This document shows, one piece after another, positions 3,131 through 47,128 of a DNA stretch of 64,000 bases. Location: assembly GCF_054482595.1 (NCBI RefSeq), contig NZ_CM137008.1; one strand, 5' to 3'. The translations under genes were made by a program, and so were the position numbers. Each line of letters begins with the position of its first letter. The first letter of the stretch is position 1. Under the pieces are notes generated by a model that saw nothing but the letters and a program-made list of their open reading frames with translations, had not been told where the DNA came from and ran no database searches.

Positions 3131-6100
3131 ATGGGTAAAGGCAGCAGTAAGGGGCATACCCCGCGCGAAGCGAAGGACAACCTGAAGTCCACGCAGTTGC
3201 TGAGTGTGATTGATGCCATCAGCGAAGGTCCGGTTGAAGGTCCGGTGGATGGATTAAAAAGCGTGCTGCTGAACAGTACGCCGGTGCTGGACAGCGAGGG
3301 GAATACCAATATCTCCGGCGTCACGGTGGTGTTCCGGGCAGGCGAGCAGGAGCAGACACCGCCGGAGGGATTTGAATCCTCCGGCTCCGAGACGGTGCTG
3401 GGTACGGAAGTGAAATATGACACGCCGATCACCCGGACCATCACGTCTGCAAACATCGACCGTCTGCGTTTTACCTTCGGCGTGCAGGCACTGGTGGAAA
3501 CCACCTCAAAGGGGGACAGGAATCCGTCGGAAGTCCGCCTGCTGGTTCAGATCCAGCGTAATGGTGGCTGGGTGACGGAAAAAGACATCACCATTAAGGG
3601 CAAAACCACCTCGCAGTATCTGGCCTCGGTGGTGGTGGGTAACCTGCCGCCGCGCCCGTTTAATATCCGGATGCGCAGGATGACGCCGGACAGCACCACA
3701 GACCAGCTGCAGAACAAAACGCTCTGGTCGTCATACACCGAAATCATCGATGTGAAACAGTGCTACCCGAACACGGCACTGGTCGGCGTGCAGGTGGATT
3801 CGGAGCAGTTCGGCAGCCAGCAGGTGAGCCGTAATTATCATCTTCGCGGGCGCATTCTGCAGGTGCCGTCGAACTATAACCCGCAGACGCGGCAATACAG
3901 CGGTATCTGGGACGGAACGTTAAAACCGGCATACAGCAACAACATGGCCTGGTGTCTGTGGGATATGCTGACCCACCCGCGCTACGGCATGGGGAAACGT
4001 CTTGGTGCGGCGGATGTGGATAAATGGGCGCTGTATGTCATCGGCCAGTACTGCGACCAGTCAGTGCCGGACGGCTTTGGCGGCACGGAGCCGCGCATCA
4101 CCTGTAATGCGTACCTGACCACACAGCGCAAGGCGTGGGATGTGCTCAGTGATTTCTGCTCGGCGATGCGCTGTATGCCGGTATGGAACGGGCAGACGCT
4201 GACGTTCGTGCAGGACCGACCGTCGGATAAGGTGTGGACCTATAACCGCAGTAATGTGGTGATGCCGGATGATGGCGCGCCGTTCCGCTACAGCTTCAGC
4301 GCCCTGAAGGACCGCCATAATGCCGTTGAGGTGAACTGGATTGACCCGGACAACGGTTGGGAGACAGCGACAGAGCTTGTGGAGGACACACAGGCCATTG
4401 CCCGTTACGGTCGTAACGTCACGAAGATGGATGCCTTTGGCTGTACCAGCCGTGGGCAGGCGCACCGCGCCGGGCTGTGGCTGATTAAAACGGAACTGCT
4501 GGAGACGCAGACCGTGGATTTCAGCGTGGGTGCTGAAGGGCTTCGCCATGTACCGGGCGATGTCATTGAAATCTGCGATGATGACTATGCCGGTATCAGC
4601 ACCGGTGGTCGCGTGCTGGCGGTGAACAGCCAGACCCGGACGCTGACGCTCGACCGTGAAATCACGCTGCCATCCTCCGGTACCACGCTGATAAGCCTGG
4701 TTGACGGAAGTGGTAATCCGGTCAGCGTGGAGGTCCAGTCCGTCACCGACGGCGTGAAGGTGAAAGTGAGCCGGGTTCCTGACGGCGTTGCCGAATACAG
4801 CGTGTGGGGACTGAAGCTGCCGACGCTGCGCCAGCGCCTGTTCCGCTGTGTGAGTATCCGTGAGAATGACGACGGTACGTATGCCATCACCGCCGTGCAG
4901 CATGTACCGGCAAAAGAGGCCATCGTGGATAACGGGGCGCACTTTGACGGCGACCAGAGCGGAACGGTAAACGGTGTCACGCCGCCAGCAGTACAGCACC
5001 TGACCGCAGAAGTCACCACAGACAGCGGGGAATATCAGGTGCTGGCGCGCTGGGACACGCCGAAGGTGGTGAAGGGCGTGAGCTTCCTGCTTCGCCTGAC
5101 CGTGGCAGCGGATGACGGCAGTGAGCGGCTGGTCAGCACGGCCCGGACGACGGAAACCACATACCGCTTCACGCAGCTGGCGCTGGGGAATTACAGGCTG
5201 ACAGTCCGGGCGGTAAATGCGTGGGGACAGCAGGGCGATCCGGCATCGGTATCGTTCCGGATTGCCGCACCGGCAGCACCGTCGCGGATTGAGCTGACGC
5301 CGGGCTATTTTCAGATAACCGCCACGCCGCATCTTGCGGTTTATGATCCGACGGTACAGTTTGAGTTCTGGTTCTCGGAAAAACGGATTGCTGATATCAG
5401 GCAGGTTGAAACCAGCGCGCGTTATCTTGGTACGGCGCTGTACTGGATAGCCGCCAGTATCAATATCAAACCGGGCCATGATTATTATTTTTACGTTCGC
5501 AGTGTGAACACCGTTGGCAAATCGCCATTCGTGGAGGCTGTTGGTCAGCCGAGTGATGATGCGTCCGGCTATCTGGATTTTTTCAAAGGAGAGATAGGGA
5601 AAACCCATCTGGCTCAGGAGCTGTGGACGCAGATTGATAACGGTCAGCTTGCGCCTGACCTGACTGAAATCAGGACGTCCATAACGGATGTCAGCAATGA
5701 AATCACCCAGACCGTTAACAAGAAACTGGAAGACCAGAGTGCAGCGATCCAGCAGATACAGAAGGTTCAGGTTGATACAAATAATAACCTGAACAGCATG
5801 TGGGCAGTGAAGCTGCAGCAGATGCAGGACGGACGCCTTTATATTGCGGGTATCGGTGCCGGTATTGAGAACACCCCCGACGGCATGCAGAGTCAGGTGC
5901 TGCTGGCTGCAGACCGGGTGGCATTTATTAACCCGGCGAATGGTAACACCACTCCTGCACTGGTCACACAGGGCGGACAGACGTTTATTAATGAGGCGCT
6001 GATCAAGTTCCTTATTGCTCCCACGATTACCAGTGGTGGCAATCCTCCGGCATTCTCCCTGACACCTGACGGAAAGCTGACTGCTAAAAATGCGGATATC

Positions 6101-6607
6101 AGTGGCAGTGTGAATGCGAACGCCGGGGCGCTCAACAACGTCACGATTAATGAGAGCTGTACTATTAAGGGGATGCTTGATGCTAACCAGGTGCGTGGTG
6201 ATTTTGTAAAAACGACAGGGCATCGATTTCCGCACCCCGGAGAATACCCACAGGGTTCACTTACCGTTCATATTAAGGACGATCATGCCTTTGACAGGCA
6301 GATTATAATTCAACCAATCATGTACGGTGCACCACCATATTTTAGTAAAAATGATGGCGCTAATATCTACGATACCTGCAGATTAATTGTGCGCAAAAAT
6401 GGCAATGTAATCTATGACAAATCCACTAGTGGTTCGAAAAGGACAACAGTCGTGTACAGCAATATCATTGATATGCCAGTGGGGGACGGAGATGTAATAT
6501 TAACATTTGAAGTTCAGTCGAGCGGCAGTGGAGATCCCAGAACATGGATCAGTGATTTAATGGTCTCGGTAACGAAAAAAGCCGCATCCGGTATCAGTAT
6601 CAGTTGA
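3131..6607 (+). CDS. J: Tail tip host-specificity protein J with a divergent C-terminal receptor-binding region
   Basis: 1158-aa ORF resembling lambda gpJ over most of its length; the last ~120 codons are visibly AT-rich and unlike lambda J as I recall it. Confidence 0.9.
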
Positions 6608-12693: not shown

Positions 12694-13344
12694 TCAATGA
12701 GACATCATTTCCTCGACCACTTCTTCGCTACTCAACTGATATGGATAATACGTTGGCCAGTTTTCCATTTCATTTAATAAAGATTGCTGTGAATCATTAC
12801 CCATAAAAATGTGAAAATGAGATGATTTTCGTGGTGCAATTATATGATCGCTAAATTGTATATATTTAGGGGCTTTGCTTTCAGGATCTTTACATTCGAA
12901 TAAGTAACGAACGCCTTTCTTGCCTGATTTATAGGTGAGTATTTTGTATCCATCGTAATCATATTTACAGGATGTTGTTTCATTATTTCTATGGAATTCA
13001 ACAATGCCGTCCTCAATGCCAATCATCTCGATATCTGTTGCATAACCTTTGTGATAATAATCTTTAATTTCAGCAAATGTTTTAGTTTTATCTGCATCCG
13101 CTTTCTTCTGAAAGACGGGGTCAAGTTTGCCACTTTGCAGTAAAGGATAAACGGATTGCCAGACTCCATCCCAGTCACTGAGCGTTCGGTTTTGTACATT
13201 GGCATCATCAAAAACACCATTAGCAGCTTTTTGTTCGACCTCTGTTAAGGGTTTGCCGTGTGAGTGATGACCATGCGAAAAGGCAGGAGCGCTAACAATA
13301 AAGACACCTAAAGCAACAGCCAGTTTGTGAAGACGAATCGCCAA
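12694..13344 (-). CDS. zinT: Periplasmic zinc/cadmium-binding protein ZinT
   Basis: His-rich N-terminus after the signal peptide (HGHHSHG); likely TTG start with GGAGG 7 nt upstream gives 216 aa; the ORF-track ATG at 13365 adds 7 residues. Confidence 0.9.
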
Positions 13345-19475: not shown

Positions 19476-20663
19476 TTAGAACTGGTAGACTAAGCCCACA
19501 GCCACGATATCATCGGTAGCGATGCCGTTTTCTTTGTAGAAGTCGTCGTCGTTGTCCAGCAGGTTGATTTTGTAATCAACATAAGTGGACATGTTTTTGT
19601 TGAAGTAGTAGGTCATACCAATATCAACATATTTAACCAGATCTTTGTTGGTGTAATGATGATTACCCTGGCTGTCGAAGTTATCACTATTTACACCGCC
19701 TAAATCCTTACCTTTAGATTGCAGGTAAGCGATGGACGGGCGCAGGCCAAAGTCGAACTGATACTGAGCAACAACTTCAAAGTTTTGGGTTTTGTTAGCG
19801 ATGGCATCAGCATCACCGTAACCAGTCATGTTACGGGTTTCAGCATACATAGCTGCTAAGTAAACGTTATTAGCGTCATATTTAGCACCAACGGTCCATG
19901 CTTCTGCTGTTTCACCGCCAGCAGTTGCATCGAAGCGATCTCCATAACGAATGTTATGCAAACCTTTGTGAACCTGATTGTCAGTACGGTCAGAATTAGA
20001 ATATGCAGCACCCAGACTTAAACCGAAGTCGAAGTCATAGGAAGTGGACATACCGAAGCCGTCGCCGTTCTCTTTAGCTAACTTACGGCCATTACCGTTA
20101 CCAGAACCTTCCTGACCGAATAATCCATCATCTTCATTATTACCCTGATATTGCAAAGCAAAGTTCAAGCCATCGACCTGACCAAAGAAGCCATTGTTAC
20201 GGTAGGTTGCAACACCATTAGCACGACCGTTCATGAAGTTGTCAGCGCCAGCATAGGTATCGCCACCAAATTCTGGCAGCATATCGGTCCATGCTTCTAC
20301 GTCATATACGACACCGTAGTTACGACCATAGTCGAAAGTACCATTCTGACCAAAGCCTAAACCTGCAAATGCCAGACGCGTTGCGGTATTACCCTTGTCG
20401 CTTTCAGGACCGTTTGCGCCAATGTTAAATTCCCACTGACCATAACCAGTGAATTGATCAGCGATCTGAGTTTCACCTTTGAAACCGATACGGGCATATG
20501 ACATGTCGCCATCGCTGCCAGAATCATCAGAGAAGTAGTGCAGACCCACTACTTTTCCGTACAAATCCAGTTTATTACCATCTTTATTATAGACTTCAGC
20601 CGCATTTGCTGCGCCAGCAACTAATAATGCCGGGACCAGCATTGCCAGAACTTTTCTTTTCAT
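19476..20663 (-). CDS. yedS: General-diffusion porin (OmpC/OmpF family), intact
   Basis: Signal peptide [37 protein letters not shown] start and terminal F typical of porins; position next to hchA matches yedS; the ORF-track start at 20693 is an upstream extension. Confidence 0.8.
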
Positions 20664-21292
20664 TATGTATTCCCTTGTGATTATAATCTTCATGAATATA
20701 TCAATAAGTGCCGTTATCCAAAAAAAAGCACATTTGGATACTATTCTATGAAGTTCATTTTATTTTAAAGATTACATGTAACAAATGTATTTAAAAGATT
20801 TCAAAATGTTTCTAATCTATTTAATATAATTTAGAATTATGAATTCTAAATATAAATATTCATGAAAATTATAAATGTATATCAATATGTTATGAGTTGA
20901 GCGGAAGCATAGGGGGTATCAATGATTGTTGCGCCAAACGGCTGGTGTGATCACGCGCACATTAATGAAGGCATAAAAAAAAGCCGGCATCATGCCGGCC
21001 CAAAAAATATAAACAAGACGATAAAAGGCTAATAACGGAGGCATCATGACACAGAAAAATAAAAAGGTATAATTGTATTCAGTGCTAATATATTGATTAA
21101 ATGAATTAATAAAGCCGATCTCAAAGATAAATAAAATCGCTCAAAACGATTTTTCCTGTATTCACTGCCGTTGCGCAAAAATTATCTATTTGTTCAAAAA
21201 ATGAGTGAGTCTTGACTGGCTCATCCAATGTGGAAAAATGTGACTTTTATCACATAATAGTACTAAGTCTGAATTTTCCGGGTTATCTCAAA

Positions 21293-21616
21293 ATGGAATA
21301 CGGTTCGACAAAGATGGAAGAGAGACTCTCTCGCAGCCCTGGTGGCAAACTGGCTTTGTGGGCTTTCTATACATGGTGTGGCTATTTCGTCTGGGCAATG
21401 GCGCGTTACATCTGGGCAATGGCGCGTTACATCTGGGTGATGAGCCGGATCCCCGATGCCCCCGTGTCGGGATTTGAAAGCGATTTAGGCTCTACCGCGG
21501 GAAAGTGGTTAGGGGCACTGGTCGGATTTTTATTTATGGCTCTGGTCGGGGCATTGTTAGGCAGCATTGCCTGGTACACCCGACCTCGTCCCGCACGTAG
21601 CAGACGCTATGAATAA
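21293..21616 (+). CDS. yedR: Small inner-membrane protein YedR; carries a 21-bp in-frame tandem duplication
   Basis: ORF containing MEYGSTKMEERLSRSPGGKLALWAFYTWCGYFVWAMARYIWAMARYIWVMSRIP...; start codon uncertain (ORF track begins at 21212). Confidence 0.7.
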   Translation: MEYGSTKMEERLSRSPGGKLALWAFYTWCGYFVWAMARYIWAMARYIWVMSRIPDAPVSGFESDLGSTAGKWLGALVGFLFMALVGALLGSIAWYTRPRPARSRRYE

Positions 21617-42034: not shown

Positions 42035-42367
42035 GTTGTGTAACCTGTTGTTGATTACATCCGATCTCACCGCGTGGGGCATGGATGGGGCAAACACACT
42101 CAATTTCTGGTTTAAAATGGAAACCTGATTCTGAAAGTTTTCTGCCATCCACGATCTGTAAACGCGATAACATGTTTTGTCTTCGCTTTGCTCATAGGAA
42201 GAGTGAACTCTTTCGTTAGCCCTGGGTTCCTTCTGATCATTATTGTTCCTGCCTTTATCTCTTGCCACGCCAGAGCCCCCTGGATACACATACACCAGGA
42301 TGAAAACGGTGAGTTGTGTTCAAACTGTAGTACAATTCTCTCCAGTATGAACAGGAAAGAATATGCT

Positions 42368-42700
42368 ATGAACCCTTATATTTATCTTGGTGGCGCAATA
42401 CTTGCAGAGGTCATTGGTACAACCTTAATGAAGTTTTCAGAGGGGTTTACACGGTTATGGCCCTCTGTTGGCACAATTATTTGTTATTGTGCATCATTCT
42501 GGTTATTAGCTCAGACGCTGGCTTATATACCTACAGGGATTGCTTATGCTATCTGGTCAGGAGTCGGTATCGTTCTGATTGGTTTGCTTTCCTGGGGATT
42601 TTTTGGCCAACGACTGGACCTGCCAGCCATCATAGGCATGATGTTAATTTGTGCCGGTGTGTTAGTCATTAACTTGTTGTCACGAAGTGCACCGCATTAA
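42368..42700 (+). CDS. emrE: Small multidrug resistance (SMR) efflux transporter EmrE
   Basis: 110-aa four-TM ORF (MNPYIYLGGAILAEVIGTTLMKFSEGF...) essentially matching EmrE as I recall it; aggaaaga RBS. Confidence 0.9.
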   Translation: MNPYIYLGGAILAEVIGTTLMKFSEGFTRLWPSVGTIICYCASFWLLAQTLAYIPTGIAYAIWSGVGIVLIGLLSWGFFGQRLDLPAIIGMMLICAGVLVINLLSRSAPH

Positions 42701-42868
42701 AAAATAATTATCCTTGAGACAACAGGAATGTAATTTGTGCATATTATGGCTAATGCTGAGGGCAACTTTATAATTATGATTGCATTTGCACGATCATTGC
42801 GCCTTTATGCATAATGAGAGCAAGGCACATCAAATAAAATAACGATAGGTCACAACAAAGAGGTTTTT

Positions 42869-43420
42869 ATGAAAAAGCTTATCGTTTCAAGTGTATTGGC
42901 ATTCATAACATTTTCTGCGCAGGCCGCAGCATTTCAGGTCACTAGTAATGAAATAAAAACAGGAGAGCAACTTACAACGTCTCATGTATTTTCTGGATTT
43001 GGGTGTGAGGGGGGTAATACATCGCCCTCATTAACCTGGTCTGGTGCTCCAGAAGGCACCAAAAGCTTTGCCGTAACTGTGTATGATCCAGATGCGCCTA
43101 CAGGCAGTGGATGGTGGCACTGGACTGTTGCTAATATTCCAGCAACGGTAACATATTTGCCCGCTGATGCAGGAAGACGTGATGGTACAAAACTTCCGAC
43201 TGGTGCTGTCCAAGGCCGAAATGATTTTGGCTATGCAGGATTTGGTGGAGCATGTCCTCCCAAAGGAGATAAACCCCATCATTACCAGTTTAAAGTATGG
43301 GCTCTAAAAACTGATAAGATTCCTGTAGATTCTAATTCCAGCGGAGCGTTAGTTGGTTATATGCTTAATGCCAATAAAATTGCAACCGCTGAGATAACAC
43401 CAGTTTATGAGGTAAAGTAG
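42869..43420 (+). CDS. ybcL: Periplasmic PEBP/RKIP-family protein YbcL
   Basis: 183-aa ORF with signal peptide; resembles DLP12 YbcL. Confidence 0.85.
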   Translation: MKKLIVSSVLAFITFSAQAAAFQVTSNEIKTGEQLTTSHVFSGFGCEGGNTSPSLTWSGAPEGTKSFAVTVYDPDAPTGSGWWHWTVANIPATVTYLPADAGRRDGTKLPTGAVQGRNDFGYAGFGGACPPKGDKPHHYQFKVWALKTDKIPVDSNSSGALVGYMLNANKIATAEITPVYEVK

Positions 43421-43429
43421 GGTAAGAGT

Positions 43430-44227
43430 ATGCTGGCAAAAGATAGGACTAACCTAAAGATTGAAGAAATACGGATGCATAAACATCATGAGATTCACAG
43501 GGTTAAGCCTCTTATGCCAGCTTTATGTCGTATCCGTCAGGGAAAAAAAGTTATCAATTGGGAAACGCATAGTCTAACTGTTGATAATAATCAGATAATT
43601 TTATTTCCCTGTGGATATGAATTTTATATTGCGAATTACCCAGAAGCAGGTCTTTATCTTGCAGAAATGCTTTATTATCCCATTGATCTAATTGAAAGGT
43701 TCCAAAAGCTTTATGCGATAACTGATCAAATTCGTAACACGACAGGTTTCTGCTTACCTCAGAATCCCGAGTTAATATATTGTTGGGAGCAACTAAAAAC
43801 ATCTATTTCCCGAGGCTTCTCAACGCAAATTCAGGAACACTTAGCAATGGGCGTTCTACTTTCATTAGGAGCACATCATGTTAATTATTTGCTTTTATCA
43901 GATAGTAAACAATCATTAATAAGTCGTTGTTATAACCTAATGCTATCCGAACCTGGAACAAAATGGACAGCAAACAAAGTAGCGAGATATCTCTACATTT
44001 CTGTTTCCACATTGCATCGCCGTCTGGCAAGCGAGGGAGTAAGTTTTCAAAGTATATTGGACGACGTGAGGTTAAATAATGCGTTGTCTGCTATACAAAC
44101 GACAGTAAAACCCATCAGCGAGATTGCCAGGGAAAATGGTTACAAGTGTCCTTCTCGTTTTACTGAAAGGTTCCATAATCGTTTTAAGATAACACCAAGA
44201 GAGCTAAGAAAAGCGTCCAGAGAGTAA
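43430..44227 (+). CDS. ybcM: AraC-family transcriptional regulator (YbcM-like)
   Basis: 265-aa ORF with C-terminal AraC-type HTH ([12 protein letters not shown]...[12 protein letters not shown]). Confidence 0.75.
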
Positions 44228-45159
44228 AAGTATTTTATGAAGGAGCAACAGCATCGATTTTTATTTTGGAAAATAAATACGGCATACTCAACCTATTGGA
44301 GCCTGAACAATCCGGTGACTTCTGCGCTAATCGGGGACGTTTATAAGCACATATAATTGATACTATCTTCCTCCATCACAATTTCAGAAATGCACGTGTG
44401 ATTTTTTTGCATCCGGCGTTTGGACTATGTGGAGTTCAAGAGTGGGAAAGTTACAAGAGGTTGAGGGGATAATTAAAGGGATGCTTATGACATTAGATAT
44501 CCGGATAGGTACGGATATCGTTGTTATTAAATCTAGTTTATACGTTAAGATGCAGCTACAGCAGAAATTGCCATTGTTAATTTTTTCATCGTGAGCCCTT
44601 TTATTTGTACTATTATTTAAAAATGATGTCACTGCACTACAAATACTCATCTAATCAATGAGATTATTTCAAGATTTAAGTTTTAGTTTCTCATTTAAAT
44701 TGTGAAGTAGATCCCTCCTTTTATCTGAACTGTTTCTATTGCACACAATGCATGACTATTTTGTGAACGAATATAAATTTGGTAATCAAATTATATTAAA
44801 GGTTGTTATTTATGATTGACTCATAATTTATTTTTTTTAATTTAAATAGCCTAAAAATAACCATGGAGATTATTTGCATGATATTTGTTTAGATTTGTTA
44901 ATGTAATTGAGGTGATTTTATTTAATACGCAATATAGCGCCGCTTGATATTAGTTCTATTTTTTTGCGTAAGATAGATGAGACAAACTGAGACGCATAAT
45001 GGTTTGCAAGGCTCTAATACTTTGATGTTGAGGATGTGATGGGGCATGTACGGGGCATAGTACAATGATGTCCATGCAGGTGTAGATAATCTCCAGGCTT
45101 ATCCAGTGCGCCGTAAAACCCCGTCCTTCAGGGCGGGGATATAAGGCTCGGTTTTTCAC

Positions 45160-45591
45160 CTAACCAGGTGTTTGCTGTTGTTCAATGTATTGGCGGATGA
45201 CGGATATTGGCGCACCTCCGCAGCTACTGGCAAAATAGCCGGGACTCCACAAAACGCCTTTGTAGTAATACCTGACTGCAATATCTGGTCGATCTCGTCG
45301 CAGTAATCTACCCGATACGCCTTTGAGGCTGTTTACCAGACTGGATATCGCCAGTTTGGGAGGATAGTTAATTAACAAATGGACGTGATCTGGTTCGCCA
45401 TCCATTTCAACCAGTTCAGCTTCAAAATCAGCACATACATTTGAAAAGTAAGTGCGTAGTTTTTCTGTCGCGTCATGGTCAAAAATCTGACGTCGGTATT
45501 TGGTGACAAAGACCAGGTGAACATGCATCAGGAAAACACAGTGCCTTCCACGCCGGATATCGGTTTCTTTTTTCACAGACCAAAGTATCAT
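45160..45591 (-). CDS. tnpA: IS200-type Y1 (HUH) transposase TnpA
   Basis: HVHLL HUH motif and C-terminal tyrosine region (YYYKGVLWSPGYFASSCGGAPISVIRQYIEQQ); the true start may be an internal Met. Confidence 0.85.
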   Translation of the reverse strand: MILWSVKKETDIRRGRHCVFLMHVHLVFVTKYRRQIFDHDATEKLRTYFSNVCADFEAELVEMDGEPDHVHLLINYPPKLAISSLVNSLKGVSGRLLRRDRPDIAVRYYYKGVLWSPGYFASSCGGAPISVIRQYIEQQQTPG

Positions 45592-45598
45592 TTGGCCT

Positions 45599-46417
45599 GT
45601 GAAACGACTACAAGCATTTAAATTCCAGTTAAGACCCGGTGGTCAACAGGAGCGTGAAATGAGGCGCTTCGCAGGCGCATGTCGTTTCGTTTTCAATCGT
45701 GCTCTGGCGCTTCAGAATGAGAATCATGAGGCCGGTAATAAATACATCCCTTACGGGAAAATGGCTTCCTGGTTGGTTGAGTGGAAAAACGCCACTGAAA
45801 CGCAATGGCTTAAAGATTCGCCCTCACAGCCATTGCAACAGTCACTGAAAGACCTTGAGCGGGCTTACAAAAACTTCTTCCAGAAGCGGGCTGCTTTTCC
45901 CCGATTCAAAACGCGGGGACAGAATGATGCATTCCGCTACCCGCAGGGCGTTAAGCTCGATCAGGAAAACAGCCGTATTTTTCTGCCGAAACTTGGCTGG
46001 ATGCGCTACCGGAATAACCGTCAGGTCACGGGTGTTGTGAAAAATGTCACTGTCAGCCAGCCGGGGCGCAATGTCCGGGCAAAATCAGGTTTAAACCGTT
46101 CGATACTGGATCAGGGCTGGTATGAAATGCGCCGTCAGCTTGAGTACAAGCAGCTCTGGCGTGGCGGTCAGGTGCTTGCTGTTCCGCCAGCGTACACAAG
46201 CCAGCGTTGCGCGTGCTGTGGTCATACAGCGAAAGAAAATCGCCTGTCACAAAGTAAATTCAGATGCCAGGTATGTGGATATACAGCGAACGCCGATGTA
46301 AATGGCGCTCGTAACATTTTAGCGGCGGGGCACGCCGTTCTTGCCTGTGGAGAGATGGTGCAGTCAGGCCGCTCGTTGAAGCAGGAACCCACCGAAATGA
46401 TTCAGGCGACAGCCTGA
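45599..46417 (+). CDS. tnpB: TnpB-like protein with apparent internal deletion of the RuvC-I/RuvC-II core; predicted nuclease-inactive
   Basis: 272 aa versus the usual ~400; N-terminus typical of TnpB (QAFKFQLRP...[15 protein letters not shown]); C-terminus keeps the CxxC..CxxC zinc finger and an ADVNGARNI RuvC-III-like motif; no GxDxG/E segment in between. Confidence 0.7.
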
Positions 46418-46456
46418 ACGTAGCAGGGATCCACGTCCTTCAGGGCGTGGAGGATG

Positions 46457-47128
46457 TCAACAAACAGGTTGAATTAACTCCGCGCCCTGGTTTTTGACAT
46501 TACCTACCGCGCGCGATACCGGGTGCCAGGTGAACTGGTTTGCTGGCACACAGCCACTGGCAGCGATTTCTGAGGCTTCTTTACCACCAATGTCTTGCCG
46601 CATCCATTCCCGCGCAGCTTCTGGCGACAGTACCAGCGGGCGGCGGTCATGAATATCTACCAGACCCTGGTCTGCTGCTGCAGTGACAATTAAAAATCCT
46701 TCGGCTTCGTCACCACGCTCAAACGGTGTGCTACCTATCGCGGCCATAAAAACAGGTTGTCCATCAGCGCGATAGATAAAATAAGGCTGTTTTTTGTCGC
46801 CTTCTTTTTTCCACTCAAACCAGCCATCGGCAAAACAGATTGCCCGACCATGTTGCCAGAGCGGTTTAAACATACGACTGGTTGCCGCAGTTTCTACGCG
46901 GGCGTTAATCAGCGGCGATTTATCCCACCATCCGGGAGCATATCCCCAGAAAACCGGATCCAGATGAAGGTGTTCATCACGTTCACTGAGCAGAAGAACT
47001 TTGGTTCCCGGCGCGACGTTGTATCTGCCAATGGGTTCGGGATCGTAGGGAATATCGCGTTCAATATCTTCCGCGAGAAGCGCAAGGTAATCTTCACGCG
47101 TTTGGGATTGGGCAAAGCGTCCACACAT
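46457..47128 (-). CDS. yedK: SOS-response-associated peptidase (SRAP/HMCES family; abasic-site DNA-protein crosslinking)
   Basis: 223-aa ORF beginning MCGRFAQ with the catalytic Cys at position 2. Confidence 0.9.
   Translation of the reverse strand: MCGRFAQSQTREDYLALLAEDIERDIPYDPEPIGRYNVAPGTKVLLLSERDEHLHLDPVFWGYAPGWWDKSPLINARVETAATSRMFKPLWQHGRAICFADGWFEWKKEGDKKQPYFIYRADGQPVFMAAIGSTPFERGDEAEGFLIVTAAADQGLVDIHDRRPLVLSPEAAREWMRQDIGGKEASEIAASGCVPANQFTWHPVSRAVGNVKNQGAELIQPVC

Follow-up and report, generated by a model that had tools for sequence, protein, structure and literature searches.

A gap between ybcM and an IS200/IS605-family element in Escherichia coli as the probable scar of a decayed DLP12-like prophage

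The stretch of DNA that we analysed (64 kb, hereafter the window) is a piece of the E. coli chromosome in which fliE, emrE, ybcL and ybcM are followed by a gap without genes, by an IS200/IS605 element and by yedK, yedF and yedE. The left border of the gap is the stop codon of ybcM at 44227 (gene 43430-44227, plus strand), and no RefSeq feature is annotated within the gap in the identical or near-identical genomes that were inspected. The initial annotation had described the interval 44228-45094, between ybcM and the IS, as devoid of a convincing open reading frame (ORF), and we agree, having found no annotated or conserved ORF in it. The same annotation had called the interval far more AT-rich than the flanking genes, a statement that holds for one part of it only. 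The G+C content of 44228-45094 is 33.3% as against 49.7% for the whole 64-kb window, and the strong AT-richness is restricted to a core of about 340 bp (44590-44928) with 25.1% G+C, which contains the two lowest-G+C 300-bp segments of the window (starting at 44601 and 44611, 24.0% G+C each); with a mean of 49.7% and a standard deviation of 6.9 for 300-bp segments across the 64 kb, the core minimum stands at about -3.7 standard deviations. The first 320 bp (44228-44548), at 35-39% G+C, are no more AT-rich than ybcM itself (37.7%). Elsewhere in the window, 300-bp stretches below 33% G+C occur only at 12761-13090 and 20521-21320, and a perfect CRP-consensus core, TGTGACTTTTATCACA, is seen at 21239-21254. 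The features into which we divide the gap, together with the adjoining IS, are collected in Table 1.

Table 1. Features of the gap and of the adjoining IS, in window coordinates.
Feature	Position	Strand	Basis
ybcM 3' flank	44228-44434	+	homologous to the K-12 DLP12 ybcM-ylcH segment
Q antiterminator (quuD homologue) 3' remnant, about 100 nt	44435-44548	+	K-12 match, BLASTP
20-bp unit CGTTGTTATTAAATCTAGTT within the Q remnant	44519-44538	+	printed sequences
Deletion junction ATACGTTAA/GATGCAGCTAC	44548-44549		comparison with Seattle 1946 (L003)
nmpC/lc-type porin stump, ATG at 44589	44545-44589	-	alignment with porin starts
Porin 5' leader and upstream regulatory region (AT-rich core)	44590-44928	-	81% identity to phage copies
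Island-specific spacer, 41.7% G+C	44929-45103		comparison with L003
IS200/IS605-family element	45104-46460		borders from comparison with the IS-free L003

Alignment with K-12 resolves the DNA from emrE to the end of the core into four blocks. Window 42292-42709 is 92% identical to K-12 emrE; 42727-44434 matches ybcL-ybcM-ylcH at 89.8% (positions 4752-6459 of the K-12 segment used, L006); 44444-44542 matches the 3' end of quuD at 82% (L006 8242-8342); and 44549-44928 matches the start of nmpC together with about 340 bp of upstream sequence at 80.9%. The DLP12 prophage of K-12 keeps the same order, that is emrE, ybcL-ybcM-ylcH, the 3' end of quuD and the 5' and upstream region of nmpC, and a module of the form Q -> porin <- S-R-Rz is present in the lambdoid phages PhiR29_1 and 434 and in one intact prophage. 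On the other side of emrE, window 42035-42171, located 3' of fliE, matches K-12 sequence that runs into the intG pseudogene ("cryptic prophage PR-G"), and a further strain (L010) has an annotated integrase fragment adjoining fliE; this intG-remnant stretch marks the left border of the island. Where K-12 has yedL-yedN-intG', the window has the island (42172-45103), and these comparisons show the whole island to be a compacted remnant of a DLP12-like prophage. The spacer at its right end links the porin upstream region conserved in phages to the yedK stop codon, the site of the IS insertion. Within E. coli its sequence is conserved at the locus (98.9% identity to positions 5380-5555 of the Seattle 1946 sequence), and as to its source we obtained no match in the phage collection and found it absent from the fliE-yedK region of K-12.

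The plus-strand part of the gap holds what is left of two reading frames. The ATG of K-12 ylcH reads ATA in the window and is followed by an early in-frame TGA, as seen in an alignment with K-12 and with the YlcH translation, and neither a conserved start codon nor an open frame for the YlcH small protein is kept. Further on, a 55-aa ORF (44427-44594) follows the frame of the Q stump, and the 35-aa ORF at 44487-44594 that the initial annotation had singled out, with a low rating, lies inside it. The low rating was well judged, as this ORF is the C-terminal remnant of QuuD: in BLASTP, GKLQEVEGIIKGMLMTLDIRIGTDIVVIKS shares 19 of 30 residues (63%, E 4e-11) with the end of that protein. Where Seattle 1946 and strain U12A have TGA as the Q stop codon, the window has TTA, so that the reading frame runs on across the deletion junction described below. 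While K-12 QuuD matches the Pfam family Phage_antitermQ (PF06530) at 3.5e-53 over residues 1-118, the 55-aa ORF gives no Pfam match, and no full-length Phage_antitermQ ORF is found there. The likeness to QuuD and to the phage Q antiterminators of PF06530 thus lies in the homology of 44444-44542 with the last 100 or so nucleotides of quuD; in contrast to QuuD, the window retains only the C-terminal 30 codons or so, lacking the Pfam domain, the start and the promoter, which makes it a pseudogene fragment, and the remainder of ybcN...Q is missing from the window. Within the stump, the 20-bp unit listed in Table 1 is present once in the window, twice in L007 and L008 (at about 2789-2828 in both) and three times in L009 (at about 2789-2848), the copies being in tandem. 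The ORFs that a mechanical search returns in the interval measure 20-88 aa; the three longest have no Pfam match, and none of them is conserved in the homologous intergenic region of K-12. A small ORF conserved between porin and S was also considered; the candidate, a 44-aa ORF of PhiR29_1, was rejected since it has no counterpart in K-12 or in the window. By these comparisons the short ORFs of the interval would be gene stumps or chance products.

What has gone from the locus can be read from strains in which it is intact. In Seattle 1946, CFT073 and VTB96815v a porin gene of 1083 bp occupies the minus strand between ybcM and yedK (L003 3959-5041, annotated as "ompC", Pfam Porin_1 E 1e-153), and ATCC 11775 is identical over a porin query of 1501 bp. 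In pairwise BLAST, window 43430-44548 corresponds to L003 2660-3778 (98.2% identity) and window 44549-45103 to L003 5001-5555 (97.5%). The window therefore lacks L003 3779-5000, namely 1222 bp comprising 1042 bp of the porin coding sequence (CDS) and 180 bp of its 3' flank, and the microhomology at the junction does not exceed 1 nt. The junction is identical in the five alleles of which the sequence was printed (the window, L005, L007, L008 and L009), and two more (L001 and L002) match the window across it; because it is identical in all relic alleles inspected, the alignments show a deletion that would go back to one single old event. A part for the IS in this deletion was considered and is unsupported: the element lies 515 bp from the junction, and no repeat is present there. 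Compared with the intact allele (C_RS11125 in CFT073, probably the old tag c2348 "nmpC precursor"; Seattle 1946; ATCC 11775), the window represents the same locus with flanks that are 97-98% identical, but the intact strains retain the porin gene (1083 bp) with its 3' flank and have no IS200/IS605 element, whereas the window carries the 1222-bp deletion.

The remaining piece of the porin gene is its first 41 nt, which code for part of the signal peptide. This stump reads MKKLTMAISAVAAS (14 codons), with a TAA stop (44547-44545) that was created at the junction, and it aligns with the porin starts of Seattle 1946, DLP12 and PA-2 with one substitution, V6M. No functional porin gene is found under the upstream region, the CDS being gone after nucleotide 41 and interrupted by a stop after codon 14. 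The deleted 3' flank (L003 3779-3958) contains a strong GC hairpin, GGGGCGTTGAAACGCCCC, and two more hairpins, and is 87.6% identical to the quuD-nmpC intergenic region of K-12. We take the small RNA IpeX to map just downstream of nmpC in DLP12, and a late promoter region presumably to be there too; the homologous 180 bp belong to the deleted segment.

The AT-rich core is contiguous with the ATG of this stump (44589, minus strand) and with its signal-peptide coding sequence, and is 80.7-81.7% identical over 371-380 bp to the regions preceding lc of PA-2, nmpC of DLP12 and the corresponding genes of phage 434 and other phages. The 170 nt or so nearest the ATG hardly vary among this locus, DLP12 and PA-2 and include a ribosome-binding site (RBS), AAAGGG, at 44601-44596 on the minus strand. 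In the GenBank record of PA-2 (J02580) a CAP-binding site is annotated as atttgtgaagtagatctctat; its homologue in the window lies at 44698-44718 (TGTGAAGTAGATCCCT / aattgtgaagtagatccctcc) with the TGTGA half-site intact, and the initial annotation had quoted this very homologue, as the string tttaaattgtgaagtag, to illustrate the AT-richness. The motif match alone is no better than chance, so that we assign it as a putative CAP/CRP site by its homology to PA-2. A candidate -35 (TTGAAA, 44672-44667) and a candidate -10 (GAGTAT, 44648-44643), both below the threshold of the consensus scan, may belong to the promoter. That scan, based on the sigma-70 consensus, returned 2 promoter-like sites as against 5.1 +/- 2.8 in shuffled sequences; both are on the minus strand (44907-44878 and 44799-44770) and, being no more than expected by chance, were discarded. 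A consensus scan for intrinsic terminators found none on the minus strand from the stump to ybcM.

Taken together with lc of PA-2 and nmpC of DLP12 (qsr'), the core thus has in common the start codon, the RBS, the beginning of the signal peptide, the annotated CAP site and 81% identity, as well as its position between the Q gene and the lysis side of the module. It departs from them in that the porin CDS is deleted past nucleotide 41, that genes for holin, endolysin and spanin are missing, and that the copy abuts yedK and the IS element at fliE-yedK and not at the DLP12 site. The AT-richness of the core would then simply be that of a phage porin regulatory region. The initial annotation had proposed, among other candidates, a degraded horizontally acquired gene and a BLAST search for its remnants. 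The search did recover two prophage gene fragments, the 3' end of quuD and the 5' end of an nmpC/lc porin, and to this extent the proposal was right; the AT-rich bulk, on the other hand, is the non-coding upstream region of the porin and not decayed coding sequence.

The tnpA of the IS to the right (45160-45591, minus strand, 143 aa) is intact in the window, whereas several other strains have a pseudogene copy interrupted by an internal stop. Its tnpB (45599-46417, plus strand, 272 aa) has undergone an internal deletion of about 380-390 bp relative to the 402-aa copy of strain 510016 (L007), with a junction near 46049-46060, where the two alignments to L007 overlap by 12 bp. The element is inserted within the stop codon of yedK (45100-45104 / 46457-46461), and YedK, which ends in ...ELIQPV* in IS-free strains, ends in ...ELIQPVC* in the window with a new stop supplied by the IS end. 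All relic alleles that we inspected carry the element, whereas the three inspected alleles with an intact porin lack it. Sub-threshold Rfam matches to RAGATH-18 (29.5 bits) and HgcC (22.3 bits) fall at the 3' end of tnpB and the right border of the IS (46344-46473, plus strand), and sot0042 gave a further match below its gathering score at the tnpB 3' end; we take this to be the place expected for the guide (omega/re) RNA of TnpB in such elements.

To see how the relic is distributed, the interval was compared by megablast with 5426 complete E. coli genomes, of which 3767 gave matches of several distinct patterns. The contiguous relic allele is found in about 1032 of the 5426 (about 19%). From even-step sampling of the hit list, the intact porin allele is estimated in roughly 380 genomes, and an allele with a further deletion, as in U12A, in roughly 1000 (11 of 40 evenly spaced rows), the remaining matched genomes having DLP12-type prophage copies only. 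The U12A-type allele lacks window 44574-45219, and with it the whole AT-rich core, and its breakpoints share the 8-mer GCAGCTAC. Independent IS1 insertions are found in or beside the island: at the ybcM 3' end, next to a deletion extending from ybcL into the core, and inside the 867-bp interval (L009 1729-2426; L010 1790-2487; also matches H2-H5).

Substitutions were compared at 343 columns that are invariant in five prophage copies, using seven relic and three intact alleles. The three intact-locus alleles have 44 shared differences and no private ones, a count to be read with the possibility that they are closely related. Over the porin segment of 1501 bp, one of the three is 2.5% different from Seattle 1946. 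Each of the seven relic alleles has 4-9 private changes; the window has nine, among which are an A>G change at 44646 in the candidate -10 and the V6M change in codon 6 of the stump. Between relic alleles, the core diverges by 4-5% as against 1.2% in the coding DNA of ybcL-ybcM. For samples as small as these, the extra substitutions, the insertions and the losses fit a relaxed constraint on the core. The frequency of the relic allele, about 19%, is compatible with neutrality without proving it.

The possibility, raised in the initial annotation, of an H-NS-bound silencing region finds only indirect support, in the homology of the core to a bound region of K-12. The K-12 intergenic region between nmpC (minus strand) and essD (plus strand) is one of 78 "promoter islands" (Panyukov & Ozoline 2013, PMC3661553), and H-NS binds it in all the ChIP data sets compiled in that study (PMC3661553). 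By our own estimated conversion from the older K-12 coordinates of the paper, this island overlaps the segment aligned with window positions 44671-44928 or so. The likeness is that of a homologous AT-rich intergenic region in horizontally acquired DNA; as for the difference, the part of the island with a homologue in the window amounts to only about 256 of its 354 bp, with an identity of about 80%. The label "promoter island" would be carried over to the core of the window by homology only, and the published definition of the islands uses another algorithm than the consensus scan reported above. By analogy with the K-12 homologue, the core is probably coated by H-NS and transcriptionally quiet.

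The explanation that we favour, to which we would give a probability of roughly 0.85, is that the gap represents the scar left by the decay of a DLP12-like lambdoid prophage, and its AT-rich core a stranded, probably H-NS-coated regulatory region that no longer has a selected function. The identities of the fragments and the deletion are plain from the alignments, and from the pattern of decay we infer that the core has lost any selected function. The ancestral order is emrE-ybcL-ybcM-(ylcH')-Q', the porin on the minus strand, the porin upstream region and yedK, as kept in CFT073, Seattle 1946 and ATCC 11775, an arrangement that mirrors the module Q -> porin <- S-R-Rz found in live lambdoid phages. 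A single deletion of 1222 bp then took the porin gene past nucleotide 41 together with its 3' flank and joined the Q stump to the porin start, so that a porin promoter and leader of about 340 bp and 25% G+C was left with nothing to express. At most, a short spurious transcript bearing the 14-codon stump may run from it towards ybcM in antisense. The region would have been drifting since, to judge from the added substitutions, the changes in copy number of the 20-bp unit, the IS1 insertions and the further deletions seen in related strains. Some residual transcription from the core is possible because the proximal promoter, the RBS and the CAP site are still largely intact, and, with no intrinsic terminator on the minus strand before ybcM, the transcript could be antisense to ybcM. 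No publication on this particular allele was found. In kind, the relic exemplifies the ordinary decay of prophages and pseudogenes and is not a new element.

The conservation of the proximal part of the core raises the question of whether the orphan promoter has been put to another use. It might be active and co-opted, yielding a CRP- and temperature-responsive transcript antisense to the 3' end of ybcM that modulates this gene, or else the 14-residue peptide encoded by the stump; we consider this unlikely. Such an RNA would consist of a 14-codon ORF followed by untranslated sequence, a typical target of Rho termination, which counts against it. The private substitutions of the relic alleles, moreover, fall in exactly the promoter region (in the window, one of them in the candidate -10), the region is gone from about 1000 genomes, and in others an IS1 lies inside it. 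Co-option draws its support from the proximal 170 nt, the RBS and the CAP-site homologue being largely kept, from the lack of a predicted minus-strand intrinsic terminator between 44589 and ybcM, and from CFT073, whose porin "nmpC precursor/c2348" is reported to be preferentially and strongly expressed at 37 °C at both the RNA and the protein level (PMC12890032); from gene order, c2348 would be the intact allele at this locus. The H-NS bound to the K-12 homologue (PMC3661553) again speaks for a silent region. Less likely still is that the porin control region has been exapted, whether through a CRP- and temperature-responsive transcript running antisense into ybcM or as a new small RNA; if this were true, the regulation of emrE-ybcL-ybcM would be rewired in about one-fifth of E. 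coli genomes.

One may argue with similarly little likelihood that the core has been selected as an H-NS nucleation site silencing emrE-ybcL-ybcM or the adjacent IS. Its very low G+C content (24-25%) with A/T tracts and the binding of H-NS to the homologous K-12 region in all compiled studies (PMC3661553) would be in keeping with such a role, but base composition alone accounts for H-NS binding and selection is not needed. Besides, many genomes have lost the core and yet keep emrE-ybcL-ybcM, and the divergence of the relic cores, measured against that of the flanking coding DNA, is what unconstrained DNA would give. An unannotated structured non-coding RNA or small protein encoded in the interval, for instance by the 35/55-aa ORF at 44427-44594, is the least credible of the alternatives. 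There are indeed ORFs of 20-88 aa, the 35-aa ORF is preceded by AAAGGG, and the equivalent intergenic region of PhiR29_1 has an annotated hypothetical protein of 44 aa; against this, the 55-aa ORF represents the Q-stump frame, prolonged by a stop-codon mutation that U12A and Seattle 1946 do not have, the PhiR29_1 ORF is without counterpart in the window or K-12, and the longest ORFs of the interval have no Pfam match. The initial annotation had also listed a non-coding RNA locus, to be sought with a covariance-model scan, and this idea did not survive the scan: no Rfam family matched at E<=1 within 44228-45103, nor was any found in the interval of the intact allele. When both strands of the core and of 44929-45103 were folded, the z values against shuffled sequences were 0.06, -0.43, 1.84 and 1.23, i.e., no signal.

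Read as the scar of a decayed prophage, the locus explains an unannotated gap of 0.9 kb in about one-fifth of complete E. coli genomes as the debris of pseudogenes and of a promoter, and the exact deletion junction is usable as a lineage marker. It also shows a porin locus of prophage origin decaying in steps: the intact gene, then the loss of the porin, then the loss of the promoter region as well. Beyond annotation its significance is small, with one word of caution: AT-rich, ORF-free DNA beside prophage cargo genes is often a stranded regulatory region.
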